Positions 9,567-53,589 of a DNA stretch of 64,000 nucleotides are shown here, piece by piece (within the stretch, counting starts at the first letter, position 1; every line of letters starts with the position of its first letter). The translations under genes were made by a program, and so were the position numbers. The stretch is taken from assembly GCA_034414775.1 (NCBI GenBank), contig DAOULX010000042.1:3590-67589 (forward strand), given 5' to 3'. The notes below the pieces were generated by a model, which was not told where the DNA came from, made no database searches, and saw only the letters and a list, made by a program, of their open reading frames with translations. Source of the stretch: Dehalococcoidales bacterium (GTDB lineage: Bacteria > Chloroflexota > Dehalococcoidia > Dehalococcoidales > RBG-16-60-22).

Positions 9567-10148
9567 CTAATGAAGGTCCACGTACTGGGTAACCCGGCCG
9601 GGTATTTCTCTTTCTAAGGGGAGCACCGGGCCGTTGGGTGGCTTAACCTCCAGGGCAAACCTGTCATACGGGCCGATTGAGATATTGCCTGATGTCGGCA
9701 TGACAACGGTGATTTCGAAGAGCTCGTTGGGATCGAGAAGATTATCATCATTGACCGTGCTCAACTTTGCCAATGTCCAGTTGACCGAGGGAAGAAAGTT
9801 GCCCTGGTCATGGTAGGAAATAATGACAGGGCTTACATTCTCCGATGACGGAGCGAAATCTACCGGACTACCGGCCGAAGGAATCGCCACACCAAAGATG
9901 ATTTCCGTTACAACGCTGCTCTCCATCTTGGCGATGATGTTGCCCTTGATTTCTATCGTGGCCATGGTTGAATCGAGTCCGGCGTTGACGGCCTCTTTGG
10001 CCTTCTGTGAGGAGAACAGGCCTGCGGAGAGGACGACATAAGCGAACACCGAAGCCACAATGACGAACGCAATAAGTATTATTGCCGTTTCCAGGCCGGT
10101 GACACCCGCCTGGTTTTCGCGTATTTCCTTTACTCGTTTCCTAAACAT
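9567..10148 (-). CDS. Archaellin (archaeal flagellin) N-terminal domain protein with class III signal peptide
   Basis: A basic leader MFRKRVKEIRENQAG is followed by VTGLETAIILIAFVIVASVFAYVVLSAGLFSSQKAKEAVNAGL. This matches the archaellin N-terminal domain pattern, including the region after the hydrophobic helix. An RBS GGTGGAGG lies upstream. Confidence 0.75.
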   Translation of the reverse strand: MFRKRVKEIRENQAGVTGLETAIILIAFVIVASVFAYVVLSAGLFSSQKAKEAVNAGLDSTMATIEIKGNIIAKMESSVVTEIIFGVAIPSAGSPVDFAPSSENVSPVIISYHDQGNFLPSVNWTLAKLSTVNDDNLLDPNELFEITVVMPTSGNISIGPYDRFALEVKPPNGPVLPLEREIPGRVTQYVDLH

Positions 10149-10431
10149 ATTACCTCCACCTTTTCAGATGGCCACCACGCCACCTTGAGGTATAAAGCCA
10201 TGGTCTCACCGGTCCTTCCCTTCCGGCGACTTTAGAATAACAGGCGTATGGTAACTAAAACATAAATATCCCGAACTTTACTATAAACATTTCGTGAAGA
10301 AGTAAACTTATGGAAAAAGCGGACAGTCTGAATACAATGTTAAGATAGTAATAGTTGAATCGAGGGAGACTTCGTTATCTTTGATAAGTGGGTCTTCTCT
10401 CCATAGGAAAGACTTCAGAGAAAAACCTACT

Positions 10432-11142
10432 TTATACGATGGGACGATGGGGATTGAGGCAGCAGTCCCCGCAGCGGGGGATTTTGCGGCAGGTTTCTTT
10501 GCCCAGCCGAACGAGGAGGGCGTGGTACTCGTTGAAGAGTTGGGTATCGGCAGGAAGGTTTTCCACGAACAGGGCCTGATAGGCGGTATAACTATCCTGG
10601 GATGGGGCCAGCCCCAGCCTACTTAAAATCCGGCGGGTATAGGCATCGATAACGAACACCGGCCGGTTACCGGCATATAGAAGAATAGAATCAGCCGTCT
10701 CTTCGCCGATACCGTTAACGCCAAGCAACTCACGGCGTAGACCGTCCGTATCCCGGGAAAAGAGCCTGTCCAGATTGCCGGCGTATTTTTCGCTGAACCA
10801 TTTTACGAAGGCCTTCAGCCGCCGCGCCTTGATGTTATAGTAACCGCAGGGATGGATCAAGTCCGCCAGCTCCGGCTCGGATAGTTCCCGCAAGGCCGTT
10901 GCGGACAGCTTTCCGGCGGTACGGAGGTTGTCAATGGCCCTCTCGACATTGGTCCAGGCGGTGGATTGTGTCAGTATCGCCCCGACGATTACCTCGAAGG
11001 GCTCCCGGGCGGGCCACCAGTACTGGGGGCCGTACCGGTTCAGGAGTCTCCGGTAAGTGCCCAGCAACGCAACATCCCTCGCCTGATGATTCGCGAGGAT
11101 GTTGCAGTTTCCGTCCGGCGGACTGGGTACCGCTCGAGTCAT
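10432..11142 (-). CDS. Endonuclease III-like HhH-GPD DNA glycosylase family protein
   Basis: The HhH-GPD pattern (VNGIGEETADSILLYA) and a C-terminal Cys cluster (CRKIPRCGDCCL) are present. Confidence 0.75.
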   Translation of the reverse strand: MTRAVPSPPDGNCNILANHQARDVALLGTYRRLLNRYGPQYWWPAREPFEVIVGAILTQSTAWTNVERAIDNLRTAGKLSATALRELSEPELADLIHPCGYYNIKARRLKAFVKWFSEKYAGNLDRLFSRDTDGLRRELLGVNGIGEETADSILLYAGNRPVFVIDAYTRRILSRLGLAPSQDSYTAYQALFVENLPADTQLFNEYHALLVRLGKETCRKIPRCGDCCLNPHRPIV

Positions 11143-12392
11143 TTCACTTCCGCCAGCGGCGTTAACGTCAACAGTTTCCTAGCAATCCCCGGGTACTTGG
11201 CGATGAAGATGAGCTCGTCTTCAACGAGGGGTTTCTGCGACTCCACGTTAGCGTACCTGACCAGTTCGAGGATATCGTTGGCCTTATTCCTATCCGGGAA
11301 CTTGATAGGAACCGGAAGCTGGCTCATAACATGGCTGAACCCGGAGATGCCGCCGTATTCGCCGGTGCAGATCTCACGGCCGGACTCAACAAGCTCGGGC
11401 TCACCGCGGCCCAGCTCTTCGTAATGATAGAGCTCGTAGTTTTCCGGGTCTTTGAGGACACCATCGGCATGGATGCCGGACTCATGGGCGAAGGCGTTGG
11501 CTCCGACGCCCGGCTGATTAATAGGAATGGGGACGCCAAAAGCATAGCTGGTGAACCTGGTAATCTTGAAAGCCATATCCAGCTTGATTGAATTTCCCAG
11601 CTCATAGCGTTTGCAGGTAGCTTTCGATTTCCTGGCCGCCAGTATCACGGCGATGAGGTCGGCGTTGCCGGCCCGCTCGCCGATGCCATTGATAGTGGTA
11701 TTGATGTAGGCATCCTGGCCGCCGTCGATAGCGCCCATAGCTCCCGCGATGGAGTTAGCCACCGCCATACCCAAGTCGTTATGGCAGTGAAGCTCAACGG
11801 GCAGACCGATTTTCTCCGCCATCTTTCTCGCATTGTCGTAGATAGTGAAAGGGTTATCGTAACCGAGCGTATCGCAGTAACGGACCCTGTCAGCGCCATG
11901 TTCCTTCCCCGCTAGCCCGAACTCGATCAGGTAATCGACGTCGGTCCGGGAGGCATCCTCGGCATTGACACCGATGGACTCGGCCCCATGAGCGCGGGCG
12001 GCATCGACGGCTTCAGTCATATCCCGGATAATATCATGTTTGGATTTCTTGCCCAGGAACTTTCCGTTGATCATCTGGTCGGACGTAGAAATGGAAAGAT
12101 TGAGGTGGTTGATATTGGGCACATTGCGGAAGGTTAGCTCTACGTCGACGGGCATGGCCCTTATCCAACCACCGAGCCGCAGTGGTTTAATGACACCGAT
12201 CTCGGCCAGTTCCAGATTGGCCTGGAGATAGTTGATTTCGTGTCGGGTGGTCGGAAACCCGAACTCTGACTGGAAGACGCCCATATCATTGAGATATATA
12301 TTGATCATGGTCTTTTCCAGCTTGGACAGTCCGAGCCTGGCCGTCTGTACACCGTCCCGATTGGTTACATCTAGTAAATAAATCTTGGGCAT
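11139..12392 (-). CDS. Homocitrate / isopropylmalate / (Re)-citrate synthase family (HMGL-like) enzyme
   Basis: LDVTNRDGVQ..., HCHNDLGMAVANS, NGIGERAGNA are the DRE-TIM metallolyase motifs of the LeuA/NifV family. Substrate specificity cannot be assigned from sequence alone. Confidence 0.8.
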   Translation of the reverse strand: MPKIYLLDVTNRDGVQTARLGLSKLEKTMINIYLNDMGVFQSEFGFPTTRHEINYLQANLELAEIGVIKPLRLGGWIRAMPVDVELTFRNVPNINHLNLSISTSDQMINGKFLGKKSKHDIIRDMTEAVDAARAHGAESIGVNAEDASRTDVDYLIEFGLAGKEHGADRVRYCDTLGYDNPFTIYDNARKMAEKIGLPVELHCHNDLGMAVANSIAGAMGAIDGGQDAYINTTINGIGERAGNADLIAVILAARKSKATCKRYELGNSIKLDMAFKITRFTSYAFGVPIPINQPGVGANAFAHESGIHADGVLKDPENYELYHYEELGRGEPELVESGREICTGEYGGISGFSHVMSQLPVPIKFPDRNKANDILELVRYANVESQKPLVEDELIFIAKYPGIARKLLTLTPLAEVK

Positions 12393-35525: not shown

Positions 35526-37172
35526 ATGTCATCTCAGGTGTTCTATCGCAAGTGGCGCCCCCAGCTTCTCGCCGAGGTGGTCGGCCAGGAGCATGTCACA
35601 CGGACGCTGCTCAATGCCCTGGCCAAAGGGCGCATCTCGCACGCTTACCTCTTCTGTGGCCCGCGCGGCACAGGCAAGACCAGCACGGCGCGCAATCTGG
35701 CCAAGGCGGTCAACTGCCTGGCGGACGGTAAAGGTGAGCCATGTAATGAATGCGATATATGCCGGTCTATCATCGAGGGGCGGGCCATGGATGTCATCGA
35801 GGTGGATGCCGCCAGCAACACCGGCGTCGACGATATCCGCAGCCTGAGGGAGAAGGTGAACTACGCCCCGAACCAGGCCCGCTACAAGGTCTATATCATC
35901 GACGAAGTCCATATGCTGAGTACCAGCGCCTCCAACGCCCTGCTCAAGACGCTGGAAGAGCCACCGCCCCATGTCATCTTCATCCTGGCCACCACCGAGA
36001 CCCACAAGATACTCCCGACCATCCTGTCACGGTGTCAGCGTTTCGATTTCCACCGCCTGGCCCAGTCCAATGTGGTGGACAAGCTGGTCCGGATATGCGA
36101 GAAAGAGGGTATCAGCACCGACCCGGAGTCACTGCGGCTGATCGCCCGGGCGGCCACCGGCAGCCTGCGGGATGCGGAAAATCTCCTTCAGCAGTTGACA
36201 ACCGGCTACGGGAACGAGATCACCCTGACGCAGGTGCAGACCCTCCTCGGTATGGCCGATAACGAGCGCAGTCGCGAGCTGGTGAGGCATATCGTCAACG
36301 GAGACGTCGCCGCCGGCGTGGCCACGATCAATAACGTCAACAACGACGGCCTCGACCTGCGCCAGTTCAATCGGGAGGTTGTCGACTACCTGCGCTTGAT
36401 GCTGCTGGTCAAGACCGGCTCCGGTGATTCCATCGAGCTTACGCCGGAAGACCTCAGCGAGCTTAAAGAGCTGGCCTCCCGGGTGCCTTTGTCGCGTGTA
36501 TTAGGGGCCGTCAGGAGCTTCGGGCAGCTTGACCTCAGCCTGGATAACTACTCTACTCTGCCGCTGGAGCTGGCGATGGTCGAATGCACCCTCTCTACAT
36601 CCGAAGAATCGGTGAAGACAAGCCCTCCGGTTGTTGAAGAGAACACTGAACCTGTTCGACATTCCAGACATCATCCGGCTATATCCGAGGATTCGCAGCG
36701 GGTAACTCCGCCTCCCGTCGAGCCAGCCGCTCGCGAAGAGGCGAAGAATATTCCTGAAACGGAGTCTCGCGTGACCGACACAGCACCGGAGGTGAAACCT
36801 CCGCCTTCAACCACGCCAGAAGCAGAAGCCGAACCCGCCGCCGGCGAAATAATCGGGCAGTTACAAGTCCATTGGACCAAAATCATCAATGAAGCCCCGG
36901 AGAACCTCAGCCGCACCCCGGCGGCCGCTCTGCTCAGGAGCGCCCGGCCGATATCTATCGAGGACAACACAGTGGTGGTTTCCTTTAAATTTCCGTTCCA
37001 CAAAGAAAAGATGGAGGCTGTTGAGAATCAGAAAACGGCCGATAAGATCGTAAGTTGTTTTTTGGGGCGTTCCTGCCGGGTACGCTGTGTCTACGAACAC
37101 GAGAATAACCACCTGGTCAAAGCGGCGCTGCGCATGGGCGCCCAGGTTATCGATAACGGGGAGGGAAAATGA
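35526..37172 (+). CDS. dnaX: DNA polymerase III subunit gamma/tau
   Basis: A Walker A motif GPRGTGKTS, a zinc module CNECDICRS, a DExx box IIDEVHML and an SRC motif are present. Confidence 0.9.
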   Translation: MSSQVFYRKWRPQLLAEVVGQEHVTRTLLNALAKGRISHAYLFCGPRGTGKTSTARNLAKAVNCLADGKGEPCNECDICRSIIEGRAMDVIEVDAASNTGVDDIRSLREKVNYAPNQARYKVYIIDEVHMLSTSASNALLKTLEEPPPHVIFILATTETHKILPTILSRCQRFDFHRLAQSNVVDKLVRICEKEGISTDPESLRLIARAATGSLRDAENLLQQLTTGYGNEITLTQVQTLLGMADNERSRELVRHIVNGDVAAGVATINNVNNDGLDLRQFNREVVDYLRLMLLVKTGSGDSIELTPEDLSELKELASRVPLSRVLGAVRSFGQLDLSLDNYSTLPLELAMVECTLSTSEESVKTSPPVVEENTEPVRHSRHHPAISEDSQRVTPPPVEPAAREEAKNIPETESRVTDTAPEVKPPPSTTPEAEAEPAAGEIIGQLQVHWTKIINEAPENLSRTPAAALLRSARPISIEDNTVVVSFKFPFHKEKMEAVENQKTADKIVSCFLGRSCRVRCVYEHENNHLVKAALRMGAQVIDNGEGK

Positions 37173-37474
37173 ACAAACACATGATGCAGCAGGCCCAGAA
37201 GCTCCAGGCGCAGCTTCTCAAAGCCCAGGAAGATCTGGCCAGCCTGACCGTAGAGGCCAGTTCCGGCGGCGGCGCCGTGACAGTCGTAATGAGCGGCCAG
37301 CAAAAAATTATATCGGTGAAAATATCTCCGGAGGTGGTCGATCCAGCGGATGTCGAGATGCTCGAGGACATGGTATTGAGCGCCGTTAGCGAGGCCCTGG
37401 CCAAGTCCCAGGAGGCGGCCACCAAGATGATGGGCGGACTGACGGGTGGATTGAAGATACCCGGGTTGATGTAG
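37169..37474 (+). CDS. ybaB: Nucleoid-associated protein YbaB/EbfC
   Basis: 101 aa with the family pattern ([26 protein letters not shown]) in the canonical dnaX-ybaB-recR context. Confidence 0.9.
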
Positions 37475-37481
37475 GATTACT

Positions 37482-38093
37482 ATGAACCAGGAAACCACCC
37501 CCGCGACCGACGCTATCGGCCGACTGGTACAAGAGTTCAGCCGGCTGCCGGGCATCGGCCCCAAGAGCGCCCAGCGCATCGCCTTTTACCTGATGCGCTC
37601 CCCGGAGGAGCAGTCCCGCGAACTTGCCGAGGCCTTGCTGGGGTTGAAACAGAAGATCACCCTGTGCTCAGCGTGCTGCAACGTCACGGAAGTTGATCCC
37701 TGTCCCATCTGTCGCAACCCGCAGCGGGAGACCGGCCAGCTATGCATCGTGGAGCAGCCCCAGGATATCCTGGCCCTTGAGCACACCGGCGCCTACAAGG
37801 GGCTATACCACGTCCTCCACGGAGCCATTTCCCCCGGCGAGGGGGTGGGGGCGGGCGATATACGGATCAAGGAGCTGCTCGACCGGCTGCGGAACAACAC
37901 CATCAGCGAAGTCATCCTGGCGACCAATACCAATCTTGAAGGCGAGCAGACGGCGATGTACCTGGGCCGGGTCATCGCCCCGCTGGGCATCAAAGTGACC
38001 CGCTTAGCCCGCGGCCTGCCCTTCGGCACCGAGCTGGAATACGCCGACGATGTCACCCTTACCCGCGCCCTGGAAGGCCGGTCTGAGTTTTAA
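37482..38093 (+). CDS. recR: Recombination protein RecR
   Basis: An HhH motif, a zinc finger [16 protein letters not shown] and a Toprim domain are present. Confidence 0.95.
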
Positions 38094-38123
38094 ATACATC
38101 TGTATCAAAAACCTGAGGTATAT

Positions 38124-38702
38124 ATGTCATTGTTACCAGACTTTGGTATTGGAGTTTGGAACGTCTGGTTGTTTATGATTATTTATCCTCTCCAATGGTT
38201 GGCGGTCGTCGTATTCCCTAAAGGAATTGGTGAAAGAGCCAGTCATGCCCCGGAAATCATCCGGGACCGCCGGGACAAAATCATGGCTATACTCACCCAG
38301 GGACTCTGGGTCGGCGCTACGCTCTACTCCATATTCGTGCCGCTGCGAACGGGCGAGCCCTGGTTGTGGGTGGGGCTGGCGCTGTTCGCCGCCGGTCTGG
38401 TGGTGTTAATTCTAGCGACAGTAGCCGTATCCAGCACGCCTCAAGGAATGCCCTTTTCGACCGGTATCTACCGCTTTTCACGCCACCCCATGTACCTTTC
38501 CATGTTCCTTGTCTATGCGGCGGTCAGTGTCGCTGCCGCTTCCTGGCTGTTTTTCGTTATCACCATTGCCACCTTCTTTCTCCAGCAGTACCAGGCAAGG
38601 AAAGAAGAAGCCCAATGCTGTGATATATTCGGCCCGGCCTATCGGGAGTATATGGGCAGGACGCCCATGTGGATAGGTGTACCGAAGCTACAGCGACAAT
38701 AG
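38124..38702 (+). CDS. Membrane methyltransferase, ICMT/PEMT-like family
   Basis: Polytopic membrane protein with YRFSRHPMYLSMFLVY, the motif typical of isoprenylcysteine carboxyl methyltransferase-like enzymes. Confidence 0.7.
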   Translation: MSLLPDFGIGVWNVWLFMIIYPLQWLAVVVFPKGIGERASHAPEIIRDRRDKIMAILTQGLWVGATLYSIFVPLRTGEPWLWVGLALFAAGLVVLILATVAVSSTPQGMPFSTGIYRFSRHPMYLSMFLVYAAVSVAAASWLFFVITIATFFLQQYQARKEEAQCCDIFGPAYREYMGRTPMWIGVPKLQRQ

Positions 38703-38726: not shown

Positions 38727-38767
38727 AAAAAACCACACCCCGCCCCCGGAATCCCGGGGAGCGGGGT
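38727..38767 (-). terminator. GC-rich hairpin with T-tract downstream of CetZ-like gene A
   Basis: The minus strand reads ACCCCGCTCCCCGG-GATT-CCGGGGGCGGGGT, then GTGG, then TTTTTT. It lies 27 nt after the stop at 38794, between convergent genes. Confidence 0.5.
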
Positions 38768-38793
38768 AAATGTTCATCTGGTACCCGGATAAT

Positions 38794-39969
38794 TTACAAT
38801 AGTGAGGGGATGTCTTTGGAGACGTCATCCAGCGCCTTGAGCTTGTCCTCCGTCTCCTCCTGGCGTTTCTTGAACTCGGGGATAAGGTCGGTCGAGCGGA
38901 GATAGTAGTCGCGTACTTTCTCAACGTCGCTGAGCTCGGAGAGAAGTACGGTAACATCTACCAGGCCCCTTTCCCTGGGGTAGTCACCGTTGCGGATGAT
39001 GGCCTCCGGCGCGATGTCCCTCATATAATCGCCGATCTCTTTGACCATGTCCATGTTCATTTCCTTGGCCGGGCCGGACACCAGGTATAGCGCCCGGCGC
39101 GAATCGGCGGGATTGCATTTCAGGGAAAGCTCGCTGATGGCCTCATCCATAGCCTGGATGCCCTTCTGGATCTCGGTGCCCTTCTTGCGGAAATCGCTCT
39201 TCCACTCGGTCGGCCACTTGAACAGGGGAGCCTGGGTCTTACCGTAGCCGATGACTGTCCAGCCGACCACGGTCTGGATAATGTCCCCGGCGTCGAGCAG
39301 CTTGGCACCGATGAACTTGGACTTCTTTTCCTCGCCGGCGCAGAGCATATTATAGAACGGCTCGGCAATCATGCCATTTATTTTGGATAGATTGGTCTGG
39401 ATGGAAGAGTCCTTTCTTACGTAGCGCTGGTTATCAACGAGGAAGACGGCATCGGCGACCGAGTAGCAGGACTTGAGGCAGGTGGCCACGTTGAAGACGG
39501 TCCTTTCCTCGGTAGTCTCTTCGTGCTCGAAAGGCAAGACAATCAGGTTCCAAATCGGTTTATCGATGTAGCGTTCCTTCAGGTGCTGCGAGACGATGGA
39601 GATAGCGCCGGATCCGGTGCCTCCTGCCGAACCGGCGATAAGGAGGAAGGCGTCCGTTTCGAAGAAGTGCTTGGTTGTCCTGATCGCGTCTACGATTTTA
39701 TCGGAATCTTCCTTGGCTATCTCGGCACCGAGCTCGTTGATTTTCCCGACGCCGTGGCCGCCGGTCTTGCGGCTACCGATAAGGATCCGATGGCGGTGGT
39801 CGTTACCTATGCTGGACAGGCCGCTCAGATCAGCGGCATCAGTATTGACAGCGAAACAGCCTGTGACGATGGTCATACGACGGCGGCTACGGGCTTTGGA
39901 ATTAAGCCGAGCAAATTCATCGGCAATTCTGCCACCGCACTGCCCCAAGCCAACAACGACTAATTTCAT
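38794..39969 (-). CDS. Tubulin/FtsZ-superfamily GTPase, CetZ-like (paralog A)
   Basis: 391 aa. The T1 loop is MKLVVVGLGQCGGRIADEF, the T4 tubulin signature is SAGGTGSGA, and a T7-like loop is KLLDAGDII. An FtsZ-type C-terminal domain pattern is present (RALYLVSGPAKEMNMDMVKEIG...VDVTVLLSEL). The tail ends KDIPSLL. The RBS is AGGGGG. Confidence 0.85.
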   Translation of the reverse strand: MKLVVVGLGQCGGRIADEFARLNSKARSRRRMTIVTGCFAVNTDAADLSGLSSIGNDHRHRILIGSRKTGGHGVGKINELGAEIAKEDSDKIVDAIRTTKHFFETDAFLLIAGSAGGTGSGAISIVSQHLKERYIDKPIWNLIVLPFEHEETTEERTVFNVATCLKSCYSVADAVFLVDNQRYVRKDSSIQTNLSKINGMIAEPFYNMLCAGEEKKSKFIGAKLLDAGDIIQTVVGWTVIGYGKTQAPLFKWPTEWKSDFRKKGTEIQKGIQAMDEAISELSLKCNPADSRRALYLVSGPAKEMNMDMVKEIGDYMRDIAPEAIIRNGDYPRERGLVDVTVLLSELSDVEKVRDYYLRSTDLIPEFKKRQEETEDKLKALDDVSKDIPSLL

Positions 39970-39997
39970 TGCAGCCCCCTAAGTTTGAGTTATGTCT

Positions 39998-40027
39998 ATT
40001 TTAAGCATAATGTCAGCGCAATGTCAA
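39998..40027 (-). promoter_or_regulatory. Sigma70-type promoter of CetZ-like gene A
   Basis: The minus strand reads TTGACA (40027-40022), an 18-nt spacer, then TAAAAT (40003-39998), about 28 nt upstream of the ATG. Confidence 0.5.
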
Positions 40028-40121
40028 TTAGCGTAAAGTAATTTAATCATATATATTTTCGTACTAATTGTATATATGACCAATTTCCTATCTTAGGTTT
40101 GTTTGGCTTGAAAAGTAGTTA

Positions 40122-40150
40122 TTGAAAAAGTGCTACCCGAATAATATAAT
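40122..40150 (+). promoter_or_regulatory. Sigma70-type promoter of the 818-aa repeat protein gene
   Basis: TTGAAA-N17-TATAAT is followed by the RBS GGGGGGTGG and the ATG at 40183. It is divergent from the CetZ-like A promoter within an AT-rich 213-bp spacer. Confidence 0.5.
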
Positions 40151-40182
40151 AAAGATTGCCATAAAAATTTGGGGGGTGGCGA

Positions 40183-42639
40183 ATGTCTCCGAATCTGAGG
40201 GAAGAAGTCGAGGGGAATATCACAGATTTCGAACGGGCGGTAGCTAAGGCTGAGGAACTCAGCCGGGCTGCCCGAGAGGCTGCCGGTAAATCGACGAAGA
40301 GCGCCATGGAAGCCGCTCAGCGGGCGGAGGAGGTGGGGCTGAAGGCCAAGAAGGCGGCGGAAGATGCCGCCAGGGCGGCCCAGGATGCGATAGCCCGGGC
40401 GGAAAAAGTCAGCCGGGAGGCCAAAGAGGCCGCTGACGCAGCGATGAAAGCCGCTAATGAAGCCATCGCCAAGTCGGAGGAGATCGCCAAGCGGCCGCAG
40501 GAAACGGCCCAATCCATGGCCAAAGCCTTCGAGGAAGCTATCGCACGGGCGGAGAAGATTGGTGGGGAAGCGATGCGGGCGGCGGAATCGGCATTGATGC
40601 TTTCCCAGGAGAGGCTCCAGCGCATCGATGAAATCAGCCGCGAAGCCAAGAAAATAGCTGATACAGCCGAAGAAACAACCCAGGAGGCTATTTCCACAGC
40701 AGAATCAGCCGTTAGCGCCGCCAGAGAGGCCACCGAAGAGTCAATCAGAGCAACCAAGGAAGCTACCAAACAGGCGGAAAAAATGGCCCGAGAGGCCAGG
40801 GAGGCCGCCGAGGCAACCACCAAGGTGTCCAAAGACGTGGTAAGCCGGACGGAGAAGACCAGTCTGTCCACCCGGGAAGCCGCCGAAGTAGCCGCCCGGG
40901 CCGCTGAGGAAGTAGCCACGCGGGCGGAGACTATCAGCAAGGTAGCCCGTGAGGTCGCCGAGGCGTCACAGCGTTCATCCCAGGAAACGATGAACCGTGT
41001 TGAAATGGTGAGTCGGGAGGCCAAACTGGCCAACGACGCTTCTCAGAAGACCGCCCAGGAAGCACTCAAGCGGGCGGAAGACGTTACCAGGGAGACTAGA
41101 GCCGCTACGGATATGGCGGCCAAGATTGCCAAGGAGGCTTCGGCAGCTTCTGTGAAGGCCTCACAGGAAGCGATGGCCAAGGCTGAACTTCTGAGCCAGG
41201 AGGCCGGTACCAAAGCTGCTGCAGCGGCTACCGAATTACAGGAGGCGGTCGCCAGGGCGGAGCAGGTATCACGGGATACCATTGATGCTACCGAAACGGC
41301 CGTGAGGAATGTGAAGGAAGCCCAAGCCCTTACGGAGAAACAGAGTCAGACCGCCAGGGAGGAGGCCGAGGCGGCGTCGCTGTCCGCCCGGGAAGCCGCC
41401 GAAATGGCCGCGCAGTCTGCCCGGGAAACCGCCGAGGCAGCCGCACAATCAGCCAAGGAGGCCGCCCGGGCAGCCGCCGAGAATGCCCGGCAGGCCGCCG
41501 AAGCTGCGGCACAGTCGGCGCGAGAGGCCGCCGATGCGTCAGCCCAACAGGCCAGCGAGGATGTGGAAGCCGCTTCACGTAGCGCCTGGGAAGCGACCGA
41601 GGCGGCAGCTGTAGCCGTGCGGGGTGCAGTCGATGCTGCTGTACAGAAGATACTAGAGGCTTCTCAGAAGACGACTGAAGAATCCGCCGCGGCTGTAACC
41701 AGAGTCGAAGAAGTTAGCGGTGAAGCCCGGCAGAAGTCGGAGGCCGCTTCTGAAGAGTTCCGCCAGGCGGTGGCGCGGATGGAAGAAATAAATAATGCAG
41801 CCGGGGTGTCCGTCGAGGAATCGGCCAGGAGCGCCCGTGAAGCGGTCGAAAAGATCGAGAAAGAGACCCAGGAAGCGGTGGCCAGGGCCGAGGAGATTGG
41901 CCAGTCCGCCAAACAGACAGCCGAGGAATCGACAAGAGTGATGCGGGAAGCCATCGACGCCGCCATTGCGACAGTGCAGGAGACGTCCCAGGTATCCCAA
42001 CAGGAAATCCAGGAGGCGATCGCCAGAGCTGAGGAAATCAGCCGGGAGACAAAGGAAGCGGCCGAGGCAGCGGTCCAGGCCGCCCGGGAAGTGACGGACG
42101 GGCTGGTCAAAGCCGCCACGGAATCCGCGGAGAGGACGGTCAAGGCGGTCAAGGAAGCCACCGAAGCAGCCGCCAAGGTTGCCCGAGAAGCTGCCGGGGT
42201 TTCCATTTCCGCTTTCAGGGAGGCGATAAGCCGGGCGGAGACAAGCGGGCAGCTGGCCAGGCAGACAGCGGACGAGTCCTTCCGCCGCTACGAAGAGTCC
42301 CTGGGTAAGGTCCGGCAAGACGAAACCGGAGAAGGCGAAAGTCAGGAAGAAACCCCGGTCAGCGCCGAAGATGCTGTTGAAGATGAGATGGCCGCTACGC
42401 TGGAGACAGATACCGAGTTTGAGACCGAGATGGGGAGCGCTCAGGATTTGGAGGAAGAAGAGCTAGGCTCGGACATAAAGCTGGAAAAGGAAGACGTTAA
42501 AAACAACGACAAGAACGGTTCAAGGGGAGAACCCAAGGGGAAAATGGAAGCTCGTCTTGAATCCCTGGCCCGGATGTATGAGGCCAAGAGAAACCAGCAA
42601 TCCGGCAAGGGAGATGAGAATAACGATAACGGCGAATGA
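40183..42639 (+). CDS. 818-aa Ala/Glu-rich all-helical repeat protein (25-residue and 11-residue repeats) with an acidic disordered tail
   Basis: A long ORF with RBS and promoter. It has no TM segment and no signal peptide. About 20 copies of a motif resembling A-[IV]-A-R-A-E-x-[IV]-S-R-E-A-K-x-A-A are present. The conserved Glu falls at residues 24, 49, 74, 99, 124, (D149), 174, 199, 224, 249, 274 and 299. A pure 11-mer block covers about residues 392-480. The C-terminal roughly 130 aa are Glu/Asp-rich. Confidence 0.85.
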   Translation: MSPNLREEVEGNITDFERAVAKAEELSRAAREAAGKSTKSAMEAAQRAEEVGLKAKKAAEDAARAAQDAIARAEKVSREAKEAADAAMKAANEAIAKSEEIAKRPQETAQSMAKAFEEAIARAEKIGGEAMRAAESALMLSQERLQRIDEISREAKKIADTAEETTQEAISTAESAVSAAREATEESIRATKEATKQAEKMAREAREAAEATTKVSKDVVSRTEKTSLSTREAAEVAARAAEEVATRAETISKVAREVAEASQRSSQETMNRVEMVSREAKLANDASQKTAQEALKRAEDVTRETRAATDMAAKIAKEASAASVKASQEAMAKAELLSQEAGTKAAAAATELQEAVARAEQVSRDTIDATETAVRNVKEAQALTEKQSQTAREEAEAASLSAREAAEMAAQSARETAEAAAQSAKEAARAAAENARQAAEAAAQSAREAADASAQQASEDVEAASRSAWEATEAAAVAVRGAVDAAVQKILEASQKTTEESAAAVTRVEEVSGEARQKSEAASEEFRQAVARMEEINNAAGVSVEESARSAREAVEKIEKETQEAVARAEEIGQSAKQTAEESTRVMREAIDAAIATVQETSQVSQQEIQEAIARAEEISRETKEAAEAAVQAAREVTDGLVKAATESAERTVKAVKEATEAAAKVAREAAGVSISAFREAISRAETSGQLARQTADESFRRYEESLGKVRQDETGEGESQEETPVSAEDAVEDEMAATLETDTEFETEMGSAQDLEEEELGSDIKLEKEDVKNNDKNGSRGEPKGKMEARLESLARMYEAKRNQQSGKGDENNDNGE

Positions 42640-42690
42640 GATTGCGGCTCGGGGGCCGGAAAACGCCGGTTAAAGGCTATCAGAAACAAT

Positions 42691-42719
42691 TTGACTTTTA
42701 AATATTAGGGCAATATACT
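42691..42719 (+). promoter_or_regulatory. Sigma70-type promoter of the 162-aa repeat protein gene
   Basis: TTGACT-N17-TATACT lies about 90 nt upstream of the GTG start at 42811. Confidence 0.5.
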
Positions 42720-42810
42720 GGGCACAAAGTAGCAACCGGACTACTGGAAACGCCCCTTTATTGTTGCCGGTGATTAATGGAGAAATCAGTTTCATATAAG
42801 GAGGTGCCAG

Positions 42811-43299
42811 GTGGCCAACCCGAAGGAACGAACCAAGAAGACTACAGCAGAACTTGAACCCGAACCATCTGTAGAAGTGGCACCGGAGGAACAGCCCAAG
42901 AGTCCTCTTGATGAGGTCATGAGCCAGGCCGAAAAGGCCTATGCCGCTTATATGGACGCCGAGCGGCAGGTGGCCCGGGCCTATCATGAGAACGAGGTGC
43001 AGGTGGCCAAGGCTTACAAGCGGGCGGAGGAGCAGGCCGCCCGGGCTTATGAAGCGGCCGTTGCGAAGGCATTGAAAGACCGTGACGAGGCGATATCGCG
43101 GGCGGCTAAAAGCCGTGAGGACATGATGAGGCGGGCTGAAGAGGCTTACCAGGCGGCCGTCGATTCAGCCTGCGCCAATAGTGAAACGGCCATTGCCGAG
43201 GCTGTTAAAGTTCGTGATGAAAGCGTTGAGAAAGCCTGGCAGGTACGCGACCAGACCATTGAACAGGCCTGGCAGATTTACTCCAAGATAGCCAGGTAG
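42811..43299 (+). CDS. 162-aa hendecad-repeat helical protein
   Basis: The start is GTG, preceded by AAGGAGG. After a Pro/Glu-rich N-terminus, an aromatic residue recurs every 11th residue (Y47, Y58, Y69, Y80, Y113, then W143 and W154). Confidence 0.75.
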   Translation: MANPKERTKKTTAELEPEPSVEVAPEEQPKSPLDEVMSQAEKAYAAYMDAERQVARAYHENEVQVAKAYKRAEEQAARAYEAAVAKALKDRDEAISRAAKSREDMMRRAEEAYQAAVDSACANSETAIAEAVKVRDESVEKAWQVRDQTIEQAWQIYSKIAR

Positions 43300-43349
43300 C
43301 AATCCGTGGCGGTCGGCCGACTGCCTGTCATTAACCGGAAACCGACTGT

Positions 43350-43390
43350 AAAAAAGTCCGGAGCAACCTGATTCAGGCGGCGCCCCGGAC
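43350..43390 (-). terminator. Hairpin with T6 tract downstream of CetZ-like gene B (A-tract on the other side)
   Basis: The minus strand reads GTCCGGGGCGCCGCCTGAATCAGGTTGCTCCGGAC followed by TTTTTT, 26 nt after the stop at 43416. It may also serve the convergent 162-aa gene. Confidence 0.55.
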
Positions 43391-43415
43391 ATTTAAACCG
43401 ATATTTAGCAGTTAC

Positions 43416-44591
43416 TTAAAGCAGCGAGGGTATATCCTTGATGGTAATATCAATCCCTCGCTGCGTACTTATTGCACCCTCCTGGCGTTTCTTCAATTCG
43501 CTCATGAGATTGATAGCCTTGGTAAAGTAGTTCCTAACCTTCTCCACATCGCTGAGTTCGGATAGTATCAGGGTTATATCCACAGCGCCTTTTTCACGGG
43601 GGTAATCGCCGCTCCTGATGATAGCTTCTGGGGACATATTCTTGATGTGGGCTCCCATTTCCTTGATAAGGTCCACGTTGATTTCCTTGGCCGGGGCGGA
43701 AACCAGGTAGAGAGCCCTCTTCGAGTCCAGCGGATTACACCTGATGGACAGGCCGCTGATGGCGGAATCGAGGGCCTGGATGCCCTTCTGTGTTTCCGTA
43801 GCTTTGTTCCTGAAATGGCGGTTGCGGCCGAAGAGGTTTTTAAACGCGGAAGTGTGGGACCGGCCATATCCCAGAGTTGTCCAGCCTACCAGTGTCTGGA
43901 TGATATCCCCCGCATCTAGTATCTTGGCGCCGATGTGGCGGGACTTTATCTCCTCGCCGGCGCAGAGCAGATCGTAGAAGGGTTGGACGATGGTAGTGTT
44001 AATGCGGTGGAGGTTGCCCATGATATGCCGGTCTTTCATGACATAGCGCTGGTTATCGATGAGGAAGACGGCATCGGCAACCAGGTAGCTGGACTTGAGG
44101 CAGGTAGCCACGTTGTAAACCGTCCTTTCCTCGGTGGCCTCTTCATGTTCAAAGGGCAGGATGATGAGGTCGTAAACAGGCTTATCGACATAGCGTTCTT
44201 TTATCTGTTGGGTCATAACGGAGATGGCGCCGGAACCGGTGCCGCCGGCTGCCCCGGCAATAAGCAGGAAGGCATCGGTTTCCTGAAAGCCCTTCGAGCT
44301 TCTGATGGTCTCGATGATTTTATCGGCGTCTTCCCGGGCGACTTCGGCGCCGAGCTCGTTGATTTTACCGACGCCATGGCCCTGGGTCTTCTTATTACCG
44401 ATGAGGATACGGGTGTCATAGCGAGGTTTTATGGTCTTCAGGCCATGGAGGTCGGCTAAATCGGTATTGACGGCGAAAGCGCCGGTGATTATATTCAGCC
44501 CGCGGGTACTACGTGCCCGACTATTAAGCCGGGCGAACTCGTCAGCAATCCTGCCACCGCATTGCCCCAGGCCGATGACGATTAGTTTCAT
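43416..44591 (-). CDS. Tubulin/FtsZ-superfamily GTPase, CetZ-like (paralog B)
   Basis: 391 aa, collinear with paralog A without gaps and roughly two-thirds identical by eye. The same motifs are present (GLGQCGGRIADEF, AAGGTGSGA, KILDAGDII), and it ends in the identical KDIPSLL. Confidence 0.85.
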   Translation of the reverse strand: MKLIVIGLGQCGGRIADEFARLNSRARSTRGLNIITGAFAVNTDLADLHGLKTIKPRYDTRILIGNKKTQGHGVGKINELGAEVAREDADKIIETIRSSKGFQETDAFLLIAGAAGGTGSGAISVMTQQIKERYVDKPVYDLIILPFEHEEATEERTVYNVATCLKSSYLVADAVFLIDNQRYVMKDRHIMGNLHRINTTIVQPFYDLLCAGEEIKSRHIGAKILDAGDIIQTLVGWTTLGYGRSHTSAFKNLFGRNRHFRNKATETQKGIQALDSAISGLSIRCNPLDSKRALYLVSAPAKEINVDLIKEMGAHIKNMSPEAIIRSGDYPREKGAVDITLILSELSDVEKVRNYFTKAINLMSELKKRQEGAISTQRGIDITIKDIPSLL

Positions 44592-44619
44592 GGAGCGACC
44601 CTATTTTATTGTTGTATTC

Positions 44620-44648
44620 ATTGTACGCAATAAATAATGGGATGTCAA
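44620..44648 (-). promoter_or_regulatory. Sigma70-type promoter of CetZ-like gene B
   Basis: The minus strand reads TTGACA (44648-44643), a 17-nt spacer, then TACAAT (44625-44620), about 28 nt upstream of the ATG at 44591. Confidence 0.55.
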
Positions 44649-50073: not shown

Positions 50074-51201
50074 TTAAGTGAAGTGACGTTGCTTGGCCGA
50101 CTCGCTCGGTGTTTCACTGGATGCCACGTGCCGTCGGTGACTGAAAAGGGGACGGCGCAGGAAGGAAGGCATATCCAGCTCGTCCTCTGTCTTCATGCCT
50201 TTCAGGATCTTGGTGAGCTCGTCATCCTCGGTCTCCTGGCCCATGCCCAGCTTGGCATGGAATCCGGTGGTGATGAGGGTAATCCTCACTTCGTTTTCCA
50301 TGGACGGGTCATTGGCGACGCCGAAGATGATGTTGGCATCCGGATCGACAGCCTGTTTGATGACATCGGCCGCCTGGTTGACCTCGAACAGAGAGAGATT
50401 GCTGCCGCCGACGACGTTAAACAGGACAGCCTTGGATCCTTCGATGGACACATCGAGGAGCGGACTGGCCAAGGCTTCCTTGGCAGCATCGGTGGCCCGG
50501 TTCTGTCCGGATCCCTTACCGATTGACATCCAGGCCGGGCCGGCATCCTTCATGATGGCCTTGACATCGGCGAAGTCGAGGTTGATCATACCGGGGGTGG
50601 TAATCACCTCGGCGATGGCCTGGACGCCGTGTCGCAGGACATCATCGGCGAGCTTAAAGGCGCTGTCGACACCGGTCTTGTGGTCACAGAGAGTCAGCAG
50701 GCGGTCGTTGGGGATGATAATCAGGGTATCGACCTTATCGATCAGGGTAGTGATGCCTTCTTCAGCCGTCTCCATGCGGTGAGCACCCTCGAAAGTGAAG
50801 GGTTTGGTAACTACGGCGATGGTCAGGGCACCGCTGTGCTTGGAAATCTCCGCTAATATCGGGATAGCACCGGTACCGGTACCGCCGCCCATACCCGCTG
50901 TGATAAACACCATGTCCGCACCGGAGAGGATCTCCTTCAGCTCATCGCGGTTTTCCTCGGCGGCCTTTTGCCCGATGCGATGGTCGCCGCCGGCGCCGAG
51001 TCCCTTGGTCAGCTTGGGGCCAAGCTGGACGCAAACCGGGGCTTCACAGATCGCCATAGCCTGGGCGTCCGTGTTCATGGCGATGAATTCTACCCCCTGG
51101 ATGTTTTCCCTGACCATACGTGTTACGGCATTGCTGCCACCACCACCCAGACCGACGACTTTTATCCTGGCTGGGTTGGTTACAAAACTTGTTCTAGCCA
51201 T
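50074..51201 (-). CDS. ftsZ: Cell division protein FtsZ (canonical)
   Basis: 375 aa with [18 protein letters not shown] and NLDFADV motifs and a C-terminal peptide LDMPSFLRR. Confidence 0.97.
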
Positions 51202-51245: not shown

Positions 51246-52448
51246 TCATACGAAGAACTTTTTAAGCTGGGCCGCGATGCGGTTGAATAGCCCCGGTTTC
51301 CAGTTCCTCCTACTCTGGTATTTGCTCCCCCAGAGCAGCAGACCGACACTGGTGGCGTAGGCCGGGTCACGGAGTGTGTCGGCGATACCATGGAGGTTAG
51401 CAGGGGCGCCAACCCTCACCGGGAGCTTGAGGATATCGCGCCCGAGGGCAGCCATGCCGGATAGATTGGCACTGCCACCGGTAAGCACCAGACCGGCGGG
51501 TACCAGTGCTTCGTAGTCCGAATTCGGCATTTCCAGGAGGATGAGCTTCAAGATTTCCTCGACCCTGGCCCGGATGATGTCGCAGAGGTCCTGATAGGAT
51601 ACGCCGTGGCCGTCTTTGGATATAGCCGGAGCCGTATCACTTTTGCTTTCATAAACAGGCATAACACTGCCGTACTTTTTCTTCATCTCTTCGGCAATCT
51701 CGAACGGCAGCCCCAGGCCGATAGCGACATCGCGGGTGAGCTGGTATCCGGCTACCGGTAGAATGGAGGTATGCCAGATGCTGCCTTCCCTGAAGACAGC
51801 AACGTCCGTGGTGCCACCACCGACATCAGCCATGATGACACCGACCTGCTTTTCGTCATCGGTGAGGATGGCCTCGCTGCTGGCCAGGGGCTCCAGGACA
51901 AGGTCTTCGATGTCTATCCCGATGCTCCGGATGCATTTGACCAGGTTCTGGATCGAGGTCACCGCCGCTGTGATAATATGGGTTTCCACGTCGAGTCGGA
52001 AGCCGTGCATGCCGACGGGATTTTTAACGCCCGTCTGACCGTCGACGGCATAGGCGCGGGGGATAACGTGAAGCAGTCTTCTATCAGTGGCGGTCTTCAC
52101 GCTCTGGGCGGAGGCCAGGACCCGTTTCAAGTCGTCCGGGCGTACGACGCGGTCGTTACGAGTGATAGCGACAACGCCGTGGTTGTTGATCGACGTAACG
52201 TGGCGGCCGGTAACGCCGACGTAGGCAGATTCCACTTTATAATTGCTGGCCTGCTCCGCCTTTTTAACCGAGTCCCTGATGGATTCCCTCGCTTCGTTGA
52301 TATTGACCACGAGCCCTTTGTGCAGCCCCCGGGAAGGAGAAACGCCCACGCCCAGGATGCGAGGGCCGCCGTCACTGACATCCGAAAGTATCGTACAAAT
52401 CTTGGTCGTGCCAACATCAACTGAAGCTACGACATTCTGTTTTTTCAT
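51246..52448 (-). CDS. ftsA: Cell division protein FtsA
   Basis: 400 aa with actin-fold motifs (VDVGTTK, DVGGGTTD). It lies immediately upstream of ftsZ and has a strong RBS, AAGGAGGG. Confidence 0.95.
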   Translation of the reverse strand: MKKQNVVASVDVGTTKICTILSDVSDGGPRILGVGVSPSRGLHKGLVVNINEARESIRDSVKKAEQASNYKVESAYVGVTGRHVTSINNHGVVAITRNDRVVRPDDLKRVLASAQSVKTATDRRLLHVIPRAYAVDGQTGVKNPVGMHGFRLDVETHIITAAVTSIQNLVKCIRSIGIDIEDLVLEPLASSEAILTDDEKQVGVIMADVGGGTTDVAVFREGSIWHTSILPVAGYQLTRDVAIGLGLPFEIAEEMKKKYGSVMPVYESKSDTAPAISKDGHGVSYQDLCDIIRARVEEILKLILLEMPNSDYEALVPAGLVLTGGSANLSGMAALGRDILKLPVRVGAPANLHGIADTLRDPAYATSVGLLLWGSKYQSRRNWKPGLFNRIAAQLKKFFV

Positions 52449-52536: not shown

Positions 52537-53589
52537 TCAAGCGGCCAATAATACCGTCTTGATCTTTTGTAACAGGGCTGGCCGACGCCATCCCCGATAC
52601 TCGGCGATGGTGAGGACCGGATGGTCTCGGGCGGCGTCGGGCGAAGAGTTGTTATTGATCACACGCTGCGCGGCCCTCATTTTGGCGCTGCGGCTGCGCA
52701 CGTTGAGCCCGATTTCGGCTCGGGTGGGGGTAATGACTTTCTTGTTGACCAGTTCCAGGCGTGGGGTATGGCCGCAGATACAGGCCGGCGTCCCCGGGGG
52801 GCAAATACAACCGCGGGACTCTGTCTGCATGAACTGCTTGACGATTCTGTCTTCGAGAGAGTGGTAGCTGATGACTACCAGCCGGCCAGCGTGGCCGAGG
52901 AGATCAACGGCCTGTCTCAGAGCGGCTTCCAGGTGTTCCAGTTCGTGGTTGACGGCGATGCGGAGCGCCTGGAAGGTTTTCGTGGCCGGGTGAATACGGC
53001 CGCTCCGTCCGATGGCCGTTTCAACCAGTGATGCCAGCTGGCGAGTTGTGGAAACGGGACGATTCTCCACGATAATCCGGGCAATTCTGCGACTGCGCTT
53101 TTCCTCGCCGTAGGTCTTGATGATATGGGCCAGCCGGGCTTCCGGTGTCGTGTTGACGATATCGGCGGCGGTGGTCTTTTGGGTGGGATTAAATCTCATG
53201 TCCAACGGGGCATCGGTCTGGAAGCTGAAACCGCGCCGGCTTCCGTTGAGCTGAAGGGAGGACAGTCCCAGATCGAAAAGGATGCCGTGTACGGGGAAAA
53301 AGTCATATTTAATACAAATGGATTGCAGATTGGCGAAATTATCATTGACCAGGAGGGCGGACTCCTTATAGCGCTGGAGTCTTTTCTTCGCCGCCTCGAT
53401 AGCGGCGGGGTCGGCGTCAATACCCAGAAGCTGACCCCCCGGAGAGCTGTGGTCGAGGATAGCCGCGGCGTGCCCGCCGGCACCGACGGTGCAATCGATA
53501 TAGCGGCCGCCAGGCTGTACAGCGAGGGCGCGAAGCGCCTCAGAGAGGAGGACCGGGGTGTGGGTGTGGGTTGATCTCTGGTTCACCAT
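52537..53589 (-). CDS. rsmH: 16S rRNA (cytosine1402-N4)-methyltransferase RsmH
   Basis: [15 protein letters not shown] and FDLGLSS motifs are present. The protein is about 40 aa longer at the C-terminus than typical RsmH. Confidence 0.92.

Follow-up and report, generated by a model that had tools for sequence, protein, structure and literature searches.

How does a bacterial cell hold its shape when it has no peptidoglycan? The question is raised by a stretch of 64 kb from a Dehalococcoidales bacterium (contig DAOULX010000042.1; the whole analysed stretch is referred to below as the window), in which the region in question, 38727-44648, contains two genes for tubulin-superfamily GTPases, here called cetA and cetB, and between them two genes for coiled-coil proteins, cc818 and cc162. 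Together the four probably make up an undescribed bacterial cytoskeleton. The first-pass annotation had described two gap-free, collinear paralogs of 391 codons flanking two periodic proteins of 818 and 162 residues, and all four open reading frames (ORFs) were recovered as follows:

38794-39969, minus strand: cetA, 391-residue ORF, CetZ-like tubulin-superfamily GTPase, the slowly evolving "A-type" paralog
40183-42639, plus strand: cc818, 818-residue ORF, Ala/Glu-rich coiled-coil protein
42811-43299, plus strand: cc162, 162-residue ORF with a GTG start, hendecad-helix protein
43416-44591, minus strand: cetB, 391-residue ORF, CetZ-like GTPase, the faster-evolving "B-type" paralog

In a pairwise alignment cetA and cetB are 66% identical and 83% similar, with 0 gaps over the 391 residues. 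Both are CetZ-type tubulin-superfamily GTPases, and were placed with CetZ by four independent tests. At the level of domains, they carry the Tubulin/FtsZ GTPase domain of Pfam (PF00091; E 1.9e-31 for cetA and 7.3e-32 for cetB) and CetZ_C (PF21011; 58.3 and 64.3 bits, respectively, against a gathering score of 21.6), and the same two domains are precomputed for all close homologs. Both fail the FtsZ equivalog model TIGR00065, scoring 58 bits where the cut-off is 295 and the FtsZ of the window passes with 412; FtsZ_C was not found in either protein in the Pfam and NCBIfam searches, Tubulin_C gave no Pfam match at E<=1, and the TubZ family Tubulin_2 (PF13809) matched cetB only and below cut-off (15 vs 27 bits). 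When PDB sequences were searched with phmmer, the three top matches were CetZ crystal structures, namely 4b46 (CetZ1 of Haloferax volcanii, 3.6e-43), 4b45 (CetZ2 of the same organism, 1.7e-26) and 3zid (CetZ of M. thermophila, 1.5e-14), while the best FtsZ followed at 4.5e-10, and BtubB and gamma-tubulin appeared only at E 6e-5 to 1e-4. Finally, the AlphaFold2 model of cetA (predicted local distance difference test, pLDDT, 94.3; predicted template-modelling score, pTM, 0.92) was compared with known structures using Foldseek, and ranks 1-4 were all CetZ structures, ahead of every FtsZ: E 2e-33 and 2e-30 for CetZ1 and CetZ2, with template-modelling (TM) scores of 0.92 and 0.93 and root-mean-square deviations of 2.2 and 2.1 Å, against E ~1e-23 and TM ~0.83-0.86 for FtsZ entries. 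The sequence identity of cetA to CetZ1/2 is only ~28%. The motifs from which the first-pass annotation had judged these proteins CetZ-like rather than FtsZ-, TubZ- or BtubAB-like were therefore read correctly, since profile and structure searches concur; a tubulin fold was predicted, and no grouping with ordinary FtsZ was seen.

The cet proteins are additional to the cell's division FtsZ, as had been proposed, for an intact ftsA-ftsZ pair lies 5.5 kb from the cassette:

50074-51201, minus strand: ftsZ, canonical, outside the cassette; TIGR00065 412 bits against a cut-off of 295
51246-52448, minus strand: ftsA, canonical, outside the cassette; TIGR01174 382 bits against a cut-off of 176
52537-53589: RsmH/MraW, directly upstream of ftsA

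Zero mur, mra or fts peptidoglycan genes lie between RsmH and ftsA, a count that covers the 64-kb window, and the suggestion of a division and cell wall (dcw) cluster stripped of its peptidoglycan genes was borne out, with RsmH adjoining ftsA directly; the host belongs to the Dehalococcoidia. Peptidoglycan has been reported absent from Dehalococcoides, Dehalogenimonas and SAR202 (for SAR202, PMC11994032).

Where the paralogs belong within the superfamily was followed through their relatives. The closest ones in the databases, 88-95% identical, come from metagenome-assembled genomes (MAGs) named Dehalococcoidales, Dehalococcoidia or "Chloroflexi bacterium RBG", and their database names are "cell division protein FtsZ", "tubulin/FtsZ family protein" or, in JGI annotations, "tubulin-like protein CetZ". 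When 1.84 billion representatives were searched exhaustively, the relatives formed a graded series with identities from 56% down to ~28%. A GTDB scan with one genome per species found 373 cet relatives, and the best 80 of the 373, which are the loci analysed here, are essentially all from Dehalococcoidales/Dehalococcoidia MAGs. On a neighbour-joining (NJ) tree cetA and cetB are sister paralogs within a lineage whose named members are Dehalococcoidia, and the next clade, with proteins of 418-424 residues, is also from Chloroflexota ("Dehalococcoidia bacterium", "SAR202 cluster bacterium" and "Chloroflexi bacterium"), the CetZ1/CetZ2 clade of H. volcanii being separate from the Chloroflexota lineage. 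The bootstrap, which was by NJ only, with 200 replicates, capped distances and fragmentary sequences left out, recovered cetA and cetB as sisters in 165/200 replicates and a Dehalococcoidales-type lineage excluding H. volcanii CetZ2 in 181-185/200 (~91%). The tree thus presents the paralogs as a bacterial lineage distinct from canonical archaeal CetZ and spanning the Dehalococcoidales and the SAR202-type Dehalococcoidia. It is an old lineage, distributed widely within the class Dehalococcoidia, and to call it horizontally acquired, as the first-pass annotation did, goes further than this. CetZ has been described as archaea-specific (Brown & Duggin 2023), and the window encodes the bacterial proteins FtsA, RsmH and dnaX-ybaB-recR. 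cetA and cetB are accordingly "CetZ-like": they have the domains, sequence and fold of CetZ, but neither its clade nor its archaeal host. This placement agrees with that of Santana-Molina et al. 2023 (PMC9871819), who list sequences from Chloroflexota-Dehalococcoidia as CetZ-like, homologous to CetZ at the C-terminus but placed outside the canonical CetZ node.

The SAR202/Chloroflexota type was seen at three loci (L164-L166, ENA ERZ25072076/ERZ25067264), where a CetZ-like gene at 10001-11257 encodes 418 residues with Tubulin and CetZ_C domains. The island around this gene has many resolvases and IS66, IS605 and DDE transposases, along with a reverse transcriptase of a group II intron, and the gene is always followed by one for a 324-327-residue single-pass membrane protein with a Pro/Ala-rich linker, a partner unlike the coiled-coil genes.

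The arrangement of the four genes was scored from the GTPase side in 56 species-level loci with enough upstream sequence. The order cetB, cc162, cc818, cetA, with orientation kept, recurred in 47 of the 56 (including locus L012, in which cetB is truncated); a three-gene form without cc162 was found in four, a single cet gene with no cc genes in another four, and a cet tandem without cc genes in one. The reciprocal scan, anchored on cc162 in metagenome contigs, took the best 80 of 281 relatives. Within that set, a convergent cetB stood beside cc162 in 60/61 loci with at least 500 bp downstream, cetA was present in all of the 24 loci with at least 4.2 kb upstream, and cc818 in 50 of 57. The sole cc162 homolog with enough flank but no adjoining cet gene (L117, 73-2057) is followed by other helical proteins, and may represent a rearranged or alternative context. 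The four cassette genes, two GTPases and two novel coiled-coil families, are genomically locked together, and the strict two-way co-occurrence makes the coiled-coil genes dedicated partners of cet in the genomic sense, as the first-pass annotation had supposed.

On an NJ tree of A-type, B-type and single-copy proteins, the B-type sequences form one clade that occurs only in cc-bearing loci, while the single-copy cet proteins from loci without cc genes fall at or below the base of the A clade, apart from a handful of nested ones, which resemble secondary losses. The most economical history has a single cet duplication, coupled to the gain of the coiled-coil genes. The flanks of the cassette are conserved as well, with HGD-D and GAPDH on one side and dnaX-ybaB-recR on the other, and in the relatives, whether the variant is single, tandem or four-gene, dnaX-ybaB-recR comes directly downstream of the A-type cet gene and in the same direction. 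The window is different in that its block of dnaX-ybaB-recR, together with an ICMT/PEMT-like membrane protein (35526-38702), is inverted relative to cetA, whereas in essentially all related genomes the block follows cetA co-directionally.

Several variants of the locus were encountered on the way. A divergent third cet type, 45% identical to cetA/cetB and ending in DELPTLD, occurs at L067 (6764-7939) and L072 (3076-4251), in tandem directly upstream of an A-type gene and with no coiled-coil genes. The complete 1.73-Mb Dehalococcoidales chromosome CP070645.1, whose cassette is L070, has an extra A-like cet gene at an unrelated site (L081, 8001-9170), with an altered tail (...TAIPSL) and with membrane proteins and a zinc-ribbon protein as neighbours. 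At L001 (4716-5585) and L002 (4718-5587) GAPDH and cetB are separated by an extra gene, lacking in the window, for a protein of 289 residues without a Pfam domain.

How strongly selection holds each gene was compared across 35 genomes carrying all of them. The median identity to the window proteins was 89% for cetA, 75% for cetB, 76% for GAPDH and 77% for RecR, falling to 64% for DnaX, 59% for cc162 and 43% for cc818, so that cetA is the most constrained gene of the neighbourhood, under stronger purifying selection than the housekeeping genes beside it and to a degree in keeping with a polymer-forming protein. The loops T1 (GxGQxGG), T4 (GGTGSG) and T7 (LDAGD) are kept in 98-100% of the sequences of both paralogs, GGTGSG in 100%, and A-type and B-type differ by fixed substitutions at four sites only. 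T7 LDAGD aligns with VDSSE of CetZ1, which brings its aspartate opposite E218 of CetZ1 and E212 of CetZ2, the catalytic residues of those proteins (PMC13556191). Neither paralog looks degenerate, and the nucleotide-binding loops T1/T4 and the catalytic T7 loop are intact in both. A heterodimer with one catalytically dead paralog, in the style of alpha/beta-tubulin, was considered and rejected, given the T7 aspartates in both and the mere four fixed differences. The least conserved stretch in cetA and cetB, residues ~250-260, is a low-confidence loop of the AlphaFold2 model and would correspond in position to the M-loop, the lateral-contact loop of tubulin-family proteins.

Both proteins end in the same short peptide:

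38797-38817, minus strand: C-terminal peptide KDIPSLL of cetA, candidate adaptor-binding tail
43419-43439, minus strand: C-terminal peptide KDIPSLL of cetB, candidate adaptor-binding tail

The pattern D[ILV]P[ST]L[LI] stands at the extreme C-terminus of 95% of A-type and 100% of B-type sequences, and KDIPSLL, almost without variation, also closes the single-copy cet forms. In more distant relatives from the Dehalococcoidia the last residues are DLPSLE, DIPLLL or DIPTLL, and in likely archaeal CetZ-type representatives DIDSLL, IEPLF or IDGLL. The C-terminal peptide of FtsZ has the consensus DIPxFLR and binds FtsA, SepF or ZipA; KDIPSLL resembles the tail of the window's own FtsZ, LDMPSFL (LDMPSFLRR). 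Since the tail is also found in lineages without cc genes, neither cc818 nor cc162 is likely to be its partner; the candidate receptor is FtsA, whose gene lies in the window, or a protein of the SepF type.

The two coiled-coil proteins are, judged by their sequences, genuine conserved families. cc818 is 24% A and 17.5% E, and cc162 22% A and 15% E; the autocorrelation of residues peaks at 25, 11 and 36 in cc818 and at 11, 22, 33 and 44 in cc162. The hydropathy of cc818 has a period of 3.57 (= 25/7) with a power of 412, compared with a mean of 52 and a maximum of 99 in shuffled sequences, and this periodicity stays in phase over ~690 residues, whereas that of cc162 has a period of 3.65 (~11/3) with a power of 138, where shuffled sequences reach 79 at most. 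Bundles of helices with such periods, 25/7 and 11/3 (combined 36/10 = 3.6), should have almost no twist, and continuous helices would give cc818 a length of up to ~100 nm and cc162 one of ~19 nm. Three features of cc818 were mapped:

40225-42282, plus strand: repeat core of cc818, residues ~15-700, 25-residue units with interspersed 11-mers, period 25/7
42541-42591, plus strand: conserved C-terminal helix of cc818, KMEARLESLARMYEAKR, conserved in 60+ homologs
41347-41538: 33-bp DNA tandem repeat within cc818, 5.8 copies with 67% matches, encoding 11-mers of the "AAQSAREAAEA" type

cc818 begins with a conserved motif at the N-terminus and continues with a repeat core whose length varies and in which copies of the motif QEA[IV]ARAE..S are spaced by multiples of 25 plus inserted 11s, an acidic linker of ~85 residues with a net charge of -19, the conserved C-terminal amphipathic helix and a charged tail. 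Its homologs range from 517 to 911 residues, with the termini GNIxDFEKAVARAExLSR (then AAR) and EARLExLAxMYExKK in common; the 33-bp repeat suggests a recent repeat expansion, which could be the cause of the length variation in the family. cc162 begins with a variable, disordered acidic N-terminus (~31 residues), followed by a hendecad helix of ~130 residues that AlphaFold2 models as one uninterrupted helix over residues 32-161 with pLDDT >96; its family has an invariant core, AYAAYMxAERQVAxAYxENE, and a conserved C-terminus, ETIEQAWQIYSKIxR. Ends that are conserved while the core between them varies in length would point to a spacer or cross-linker whose ends bind specific partners. Neither protein matched a Pfam or NCBIfam family at threshold, LEA_4 gave no match at E<=1, and no homology to the Zap, EzrA or DivIVA families was detectable in Pfam and NCBIfam. 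The sequence search of the PDB returned only designed helical repeats for cc818, and nothing at E<=1 for cc162. Sub-threshold matches of cc818 to BORCS6, Phasin_2, linker histone and ZorA, and of cc162 to DUF6658, SctL, DivIVA/Wag31 and ATP synthase b, were dismissed as noise that coiled coils or biased composition produce. An ORF pair of 799 and 162 residues at 57.3-60.2 kb of the window, taken up as a possible second pair of this kind, turned out to be PriA and peptide deformylase, the match in size being coincidental. Close to it, the ORF of ribosomal protein L19 (56399-57268) is 289 residues long, the L19 domain taking up residues 12-109 only and a C-terminal extension of ~180 residues being present.

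Putative signals for transcription were sought by consensus:

39998-40027, minus strand: sigma-70-like promoter of cetA, TTGACA-18-TAAAAT, 11/12 consensus positions
40122-40150, plus strand: sigma-70-like promoter of cc818, divergent from that of cetA, TTGAAA-17-TATAAT, 11/12
42691-42719, plus strand: sigma-70-like, promoter-like site upstream of cc162, TTGACT-17-TATACT, 10/12
44620-44648, minus strand: sigma-70-like promoter of cetB, TTGACA-17-TACAAT, 11/12
38737-38752, minus strand: terminator-like hairpin and T-run downstream of cetA, from a consensus scan; weak, as terminator-like sites were not enriched over shuffles

The region contains 8 promoter-like sites against 2.8 +/- 1.8 in shuffled sequences; they are consensus matches of putative function. 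cetA and cc818 diverge from one AT-rich spacer of 213 bp.

What such a cassette might do can be approached from Haloferax, in which CetZ1 and CetZ2 jointly set rod versus plate shape and CetZ1 has also been linked to motility (PMC13556191). By analogy, a shape or membrane-scaffold role would be expected here, and the reading favored, with a probability of roughly 0.55, is that the cassette is a chromosomal, vertically inherited cytoskeletal module of the peptidoglycan-less Dehalococcoidales, a CetZ-type cortical scaffold that would shape the murein-less cell. According to this reading cetA and cetB would form protofilaments beneath the cytoplasmic membrane in a GTP-dependent manner; the two might share one polymer or build separate polymers that interact, in line with reports on Haloferax CetZ1 and CetZ2. 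The KDIPSLL tail would dock the filaments to an adaptor in the fashion of the FtsZ C-terminal peptide, FtsA or a SepF-like protein being the likeliest receptor. cc818, as an untwisted rod of up to ~100 nm, and cc162, as a ~19-nm hendecad helix, may act like microtubule-associated proteins (MAPs) or Zap proteins, cross-linking, spacing or stabilising the cet filaments so that these are bundled or kept at a distance. The scaffold would then maintain or remodel cell shape and envelope organisation in a cell with a surface layer (S-layer) and no murein sacculus, and FtsZ-FtsA would still be responsible for division. Both groups bearing CetZ-like proteins, the Dehalococcoidales and SAR202, have been reported to lack peptidoglycan and to possess S-layers, and SAR202 has been reported to carry the archaellum genes flaI and flaH (PMC11994032). 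In Dehalococcoides mccartyi BTF08, an "FtsZ/Tubulin GTPase" (btf_0551) and a nearby hypothetical protein (btf_0548) were abundant only in the disc-shaped cells of pure culture and were not quantified in the barrel-shaped cells of co-culture (PMC8163811); the two are candidate counterparts of cassette genes.

A number of points weigh against this reading. Polymerisation, membrane attachment and contact between the cet and cc proteins are all deductions. The synteny of small, stable genomes can outlast functional coupling, and the cassette lies within a conserved GAPDH...dnaX-ybaB-recR neighbourhood. That some lineages (L064, L066 and L080) have one cet gene but lack the cc genes implies that the GTPase works without the coiled-coil proteins, and a sub-lineage (L048, L050, L053, L055 and L060, four of them among the 56 scored) lacks cc162. 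As for the tail, its [DE][IL]xxL[LF] form is general to archaeal CetZ-type sequences, whose hosts have no FtsA, and the idea that it would bind FtsA draws on its resemblance to a motif known from FtsZ biology. The proteome correlation in D. mccartyi may concern a non-orthologous gene, and the authors of that study read it as an effect of division (PMC8163811). In the sub-lineage without cc162 the large coiled-coil protein is also shorter, at 517-653 residues.

The resemblance of the cet tail to the FtsZ C-terminal peptide, and the 5.5 kb that separate the cassette from ftsA-ftsZ in the window, have also to be weighed for a different and rather unlikely account, in which the cassette assists division. 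Through the DIPSLL tail, the polymers of cet would assemble on FtsA together with FtsZ in a wall-less divisome; there they would supply the constriction or ring-stabilising force that comes from septal peptidoglycan synthesis in walled bacteria, and the cc proteins would be ZapA-, ZapB- or EzrA-like, in analogy to archaeal FtsZ1/FtsZ2. Yet the sequence and fold of the GTPases are CetZ-type and not FtsZ-type, and the cassette lies outside the dcw cluster, with GAPDH and dnaX as its constant neighbours in related genomes; in the work of Duggin et al. from 2015, moreover, archaeal CetZ1 is said to be dispensable for division, which counts against this account too. In its favor, archaea without pseudomurein commonly use two FtsZ paralogs (Brown & Duggin 2023), and D. 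mccartyi cells with a changed morphology had down-regulated both FtsZ and the tubulin-like protein (PMC8163811).

It is improbable, in turn, that the cet filaments segregate or organise DNA in the way of TubZ/PhuZ, although such a role in the nucleoid or chromosome would explain the invariant place of the A-type cet gene directly upstream of dnaX-ybaB-recR. YbaB is a nucleoid-associated protein, which counts for this possibility, as does the location of the SAR202-type relatives in islands rich in mobile elements. However, there is no TubR-like DNA-binding adaptor and there are no centromere repeats next to the cet genes, the match to Tubulin_2 (TubZ) stays below cut-off, the fold is closest to the shape-determining CetZ proteins, and the inversion of the dnaX block relative to cetA in the window means that co-transcription is not required.

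That cc818 and cc162 are unrelated stress or membrane protectants, LEA- or apolipoprotein-like, inserted between duplicated cet genes and hitch-hiking there, is very improbable: their Ala/Glu/Lys-rich composition and 11-mer periodicity do resemble those of apolipoproteins and group-3 LEA proteins, a promoter-like site of its own precedes each of the two cc genes and cet is kept without cc in some lineages, but no LEA_4, Pfam or NCBIfam family was reached at threshold, all but one of the cc162 loci with enough flank (best 80 of 281) adjoin cet genes instead of standing apart from tubulin homologs as an LEA-type family might, B-type cet and the cc genes appear together phylogenetically, the conserved termini around a variable core are typical of specific end-binding partners, and the divergent promoter region is common to cetA and cc818. 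The probability left over from the scaffold reading and these three alternatives goes to something else.

Set beside known systems, the cassette has most in common with archaeal CetZ1/CetZ2, the best sequence and fold matches of cetA/cetB, with which it shares the Tubulin GTPase plus CetZ_C architecture, the long C-terminal helix, the acidic T7 catalytic residue, the short terminal [DE][IL]xxL[LF] peptide and the presence of two co-resident paralogs in an S-layered, murein-less cell. It differs in its bacterial host (FtsA, RsmH, dnaX-ybaB-recR), in its separate lineage at ~28% identity, in the Pro of its tail (DIPSLL), which is thus FtsZ-like, and in the coiled-coil partner genes between the paralogs; none were found described for CetZ, whose reported neighbourhoods differ. 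Prosthecobacter BtubA/BtubB(/BtubC) likewise combines two tubulin-superfamily paralogs with an accessory protein in a bacterium that keeps FtsZ, the family being typical of another domain of life. BtubA/B are true tubulins, however, whereas no Tubulin_C was detected in the cassette paralogs and the PDB match to BtubB reached only E~6e-5; BtubC is a tetratricopeptide repeat protein while the cassette accessories are coiled coils, Btub is confined to one genus and the cassette spread over a whole order, and in the cassette both paralogs keep the catalytic T7 residue.

FtsZ, with FtsA, SepF, ZapA/ZapB and EzrA, offers the parallel of a GTPase with a short C-terminal docking-type peptide (D-I/M-P-x-F/L-L) and of small and large coiled-coil accessories, but the cet proteins fail the FtsZ equivalog, are without FtsZ_C and have almost no disordered linker before the tail. 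TubZ/TubR/TubY and PhuZ are bacterial non-FtsZ tubulin-superfamily polymers with small accessories too, of which TubY is coiled-coil; they are borne by plasmids or phages along with a DNA-binding adaptor and a centromere, in contrast to the cassette, which is chromosomal, order-wide and without such an adaptor. The cc proteins can be likened to crescentin, FilP and Scy, long rod-like coiled coils with non-heptad (hendecad-containing) periodicity that serve as cytoskeletal scaffolds. No sequence relationship to them was detected, and neither a 25/7 periodicity nor an obligate pairing with tubulin-family GTPases was found described for them.

The claim that such a module was undescribed held in part. 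CetZ-like proteins of Dehalococcoidia are already present in the study of Santana-Molina et al. (PMC9871819), in JGI labels and, as an "FtsZ/Tubulin GTPase", in the D. mccartyi proteome; the GTPases are new members of a known superfamily, whose presence in Dehalococcoidia has been noted once in passing. What stands is the cassette. In the searchable literature no description was found of an order-wide, highly conserved two-paralog cassette, of coiled-coil families with 25/7 and 11/3 periodicity, of an invariant FtsZ-like tail on these proteins, or of the match between CetZ-like genes and peptidoglycan-less Dehalococcoidia. In practical terms, thousands of database entries called "cell division protein FtsZ" are mis-annotated.

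For the tubulin superfamily, the finding means that CetZ, which had been presented as its archaea-specific third branch, has an abundant, conserved and order-wide sister lineage in bacteria without peptidoglycan, and that two previously unrecognised coiled-coil families are the fixed genomic partners of this CetZ-like lineage. A testable link is raised between an FtsZ-type C-terminal docking peptide and CetZ-type polymers, and a prokaryotic tubulin-family polymer with dedicated associated proteins bears on the origin of MAP-like regulation. For the organisms, the cassette is a candidate for how the wall-less, S-layer-bounded Dehalococcoidia hold their shape, a class that includes Dehalococcoides and Dehalogenimonas, used in bioremediation, and the abundant marine SAR202. 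A bolder version, for now tentative and rather doubtful, is that the peptidoglycan-less Dehalococcoidia build a tubulin-family cortical cytoskeleton in which CetZ-type paralogs would co-polymerise, the FtsZ-like tail would anchor them and MAP-like coiled coils would bundle or space them, so that the disc shape is set. If this were true, it would be the first case in bacteria of a tubulin-type polymer whose filament-associated proteins have co-evolved with it, and the "archaeal" CetZ-based morphogenesis would be common to both domains wherever an S-layer replaces murein.

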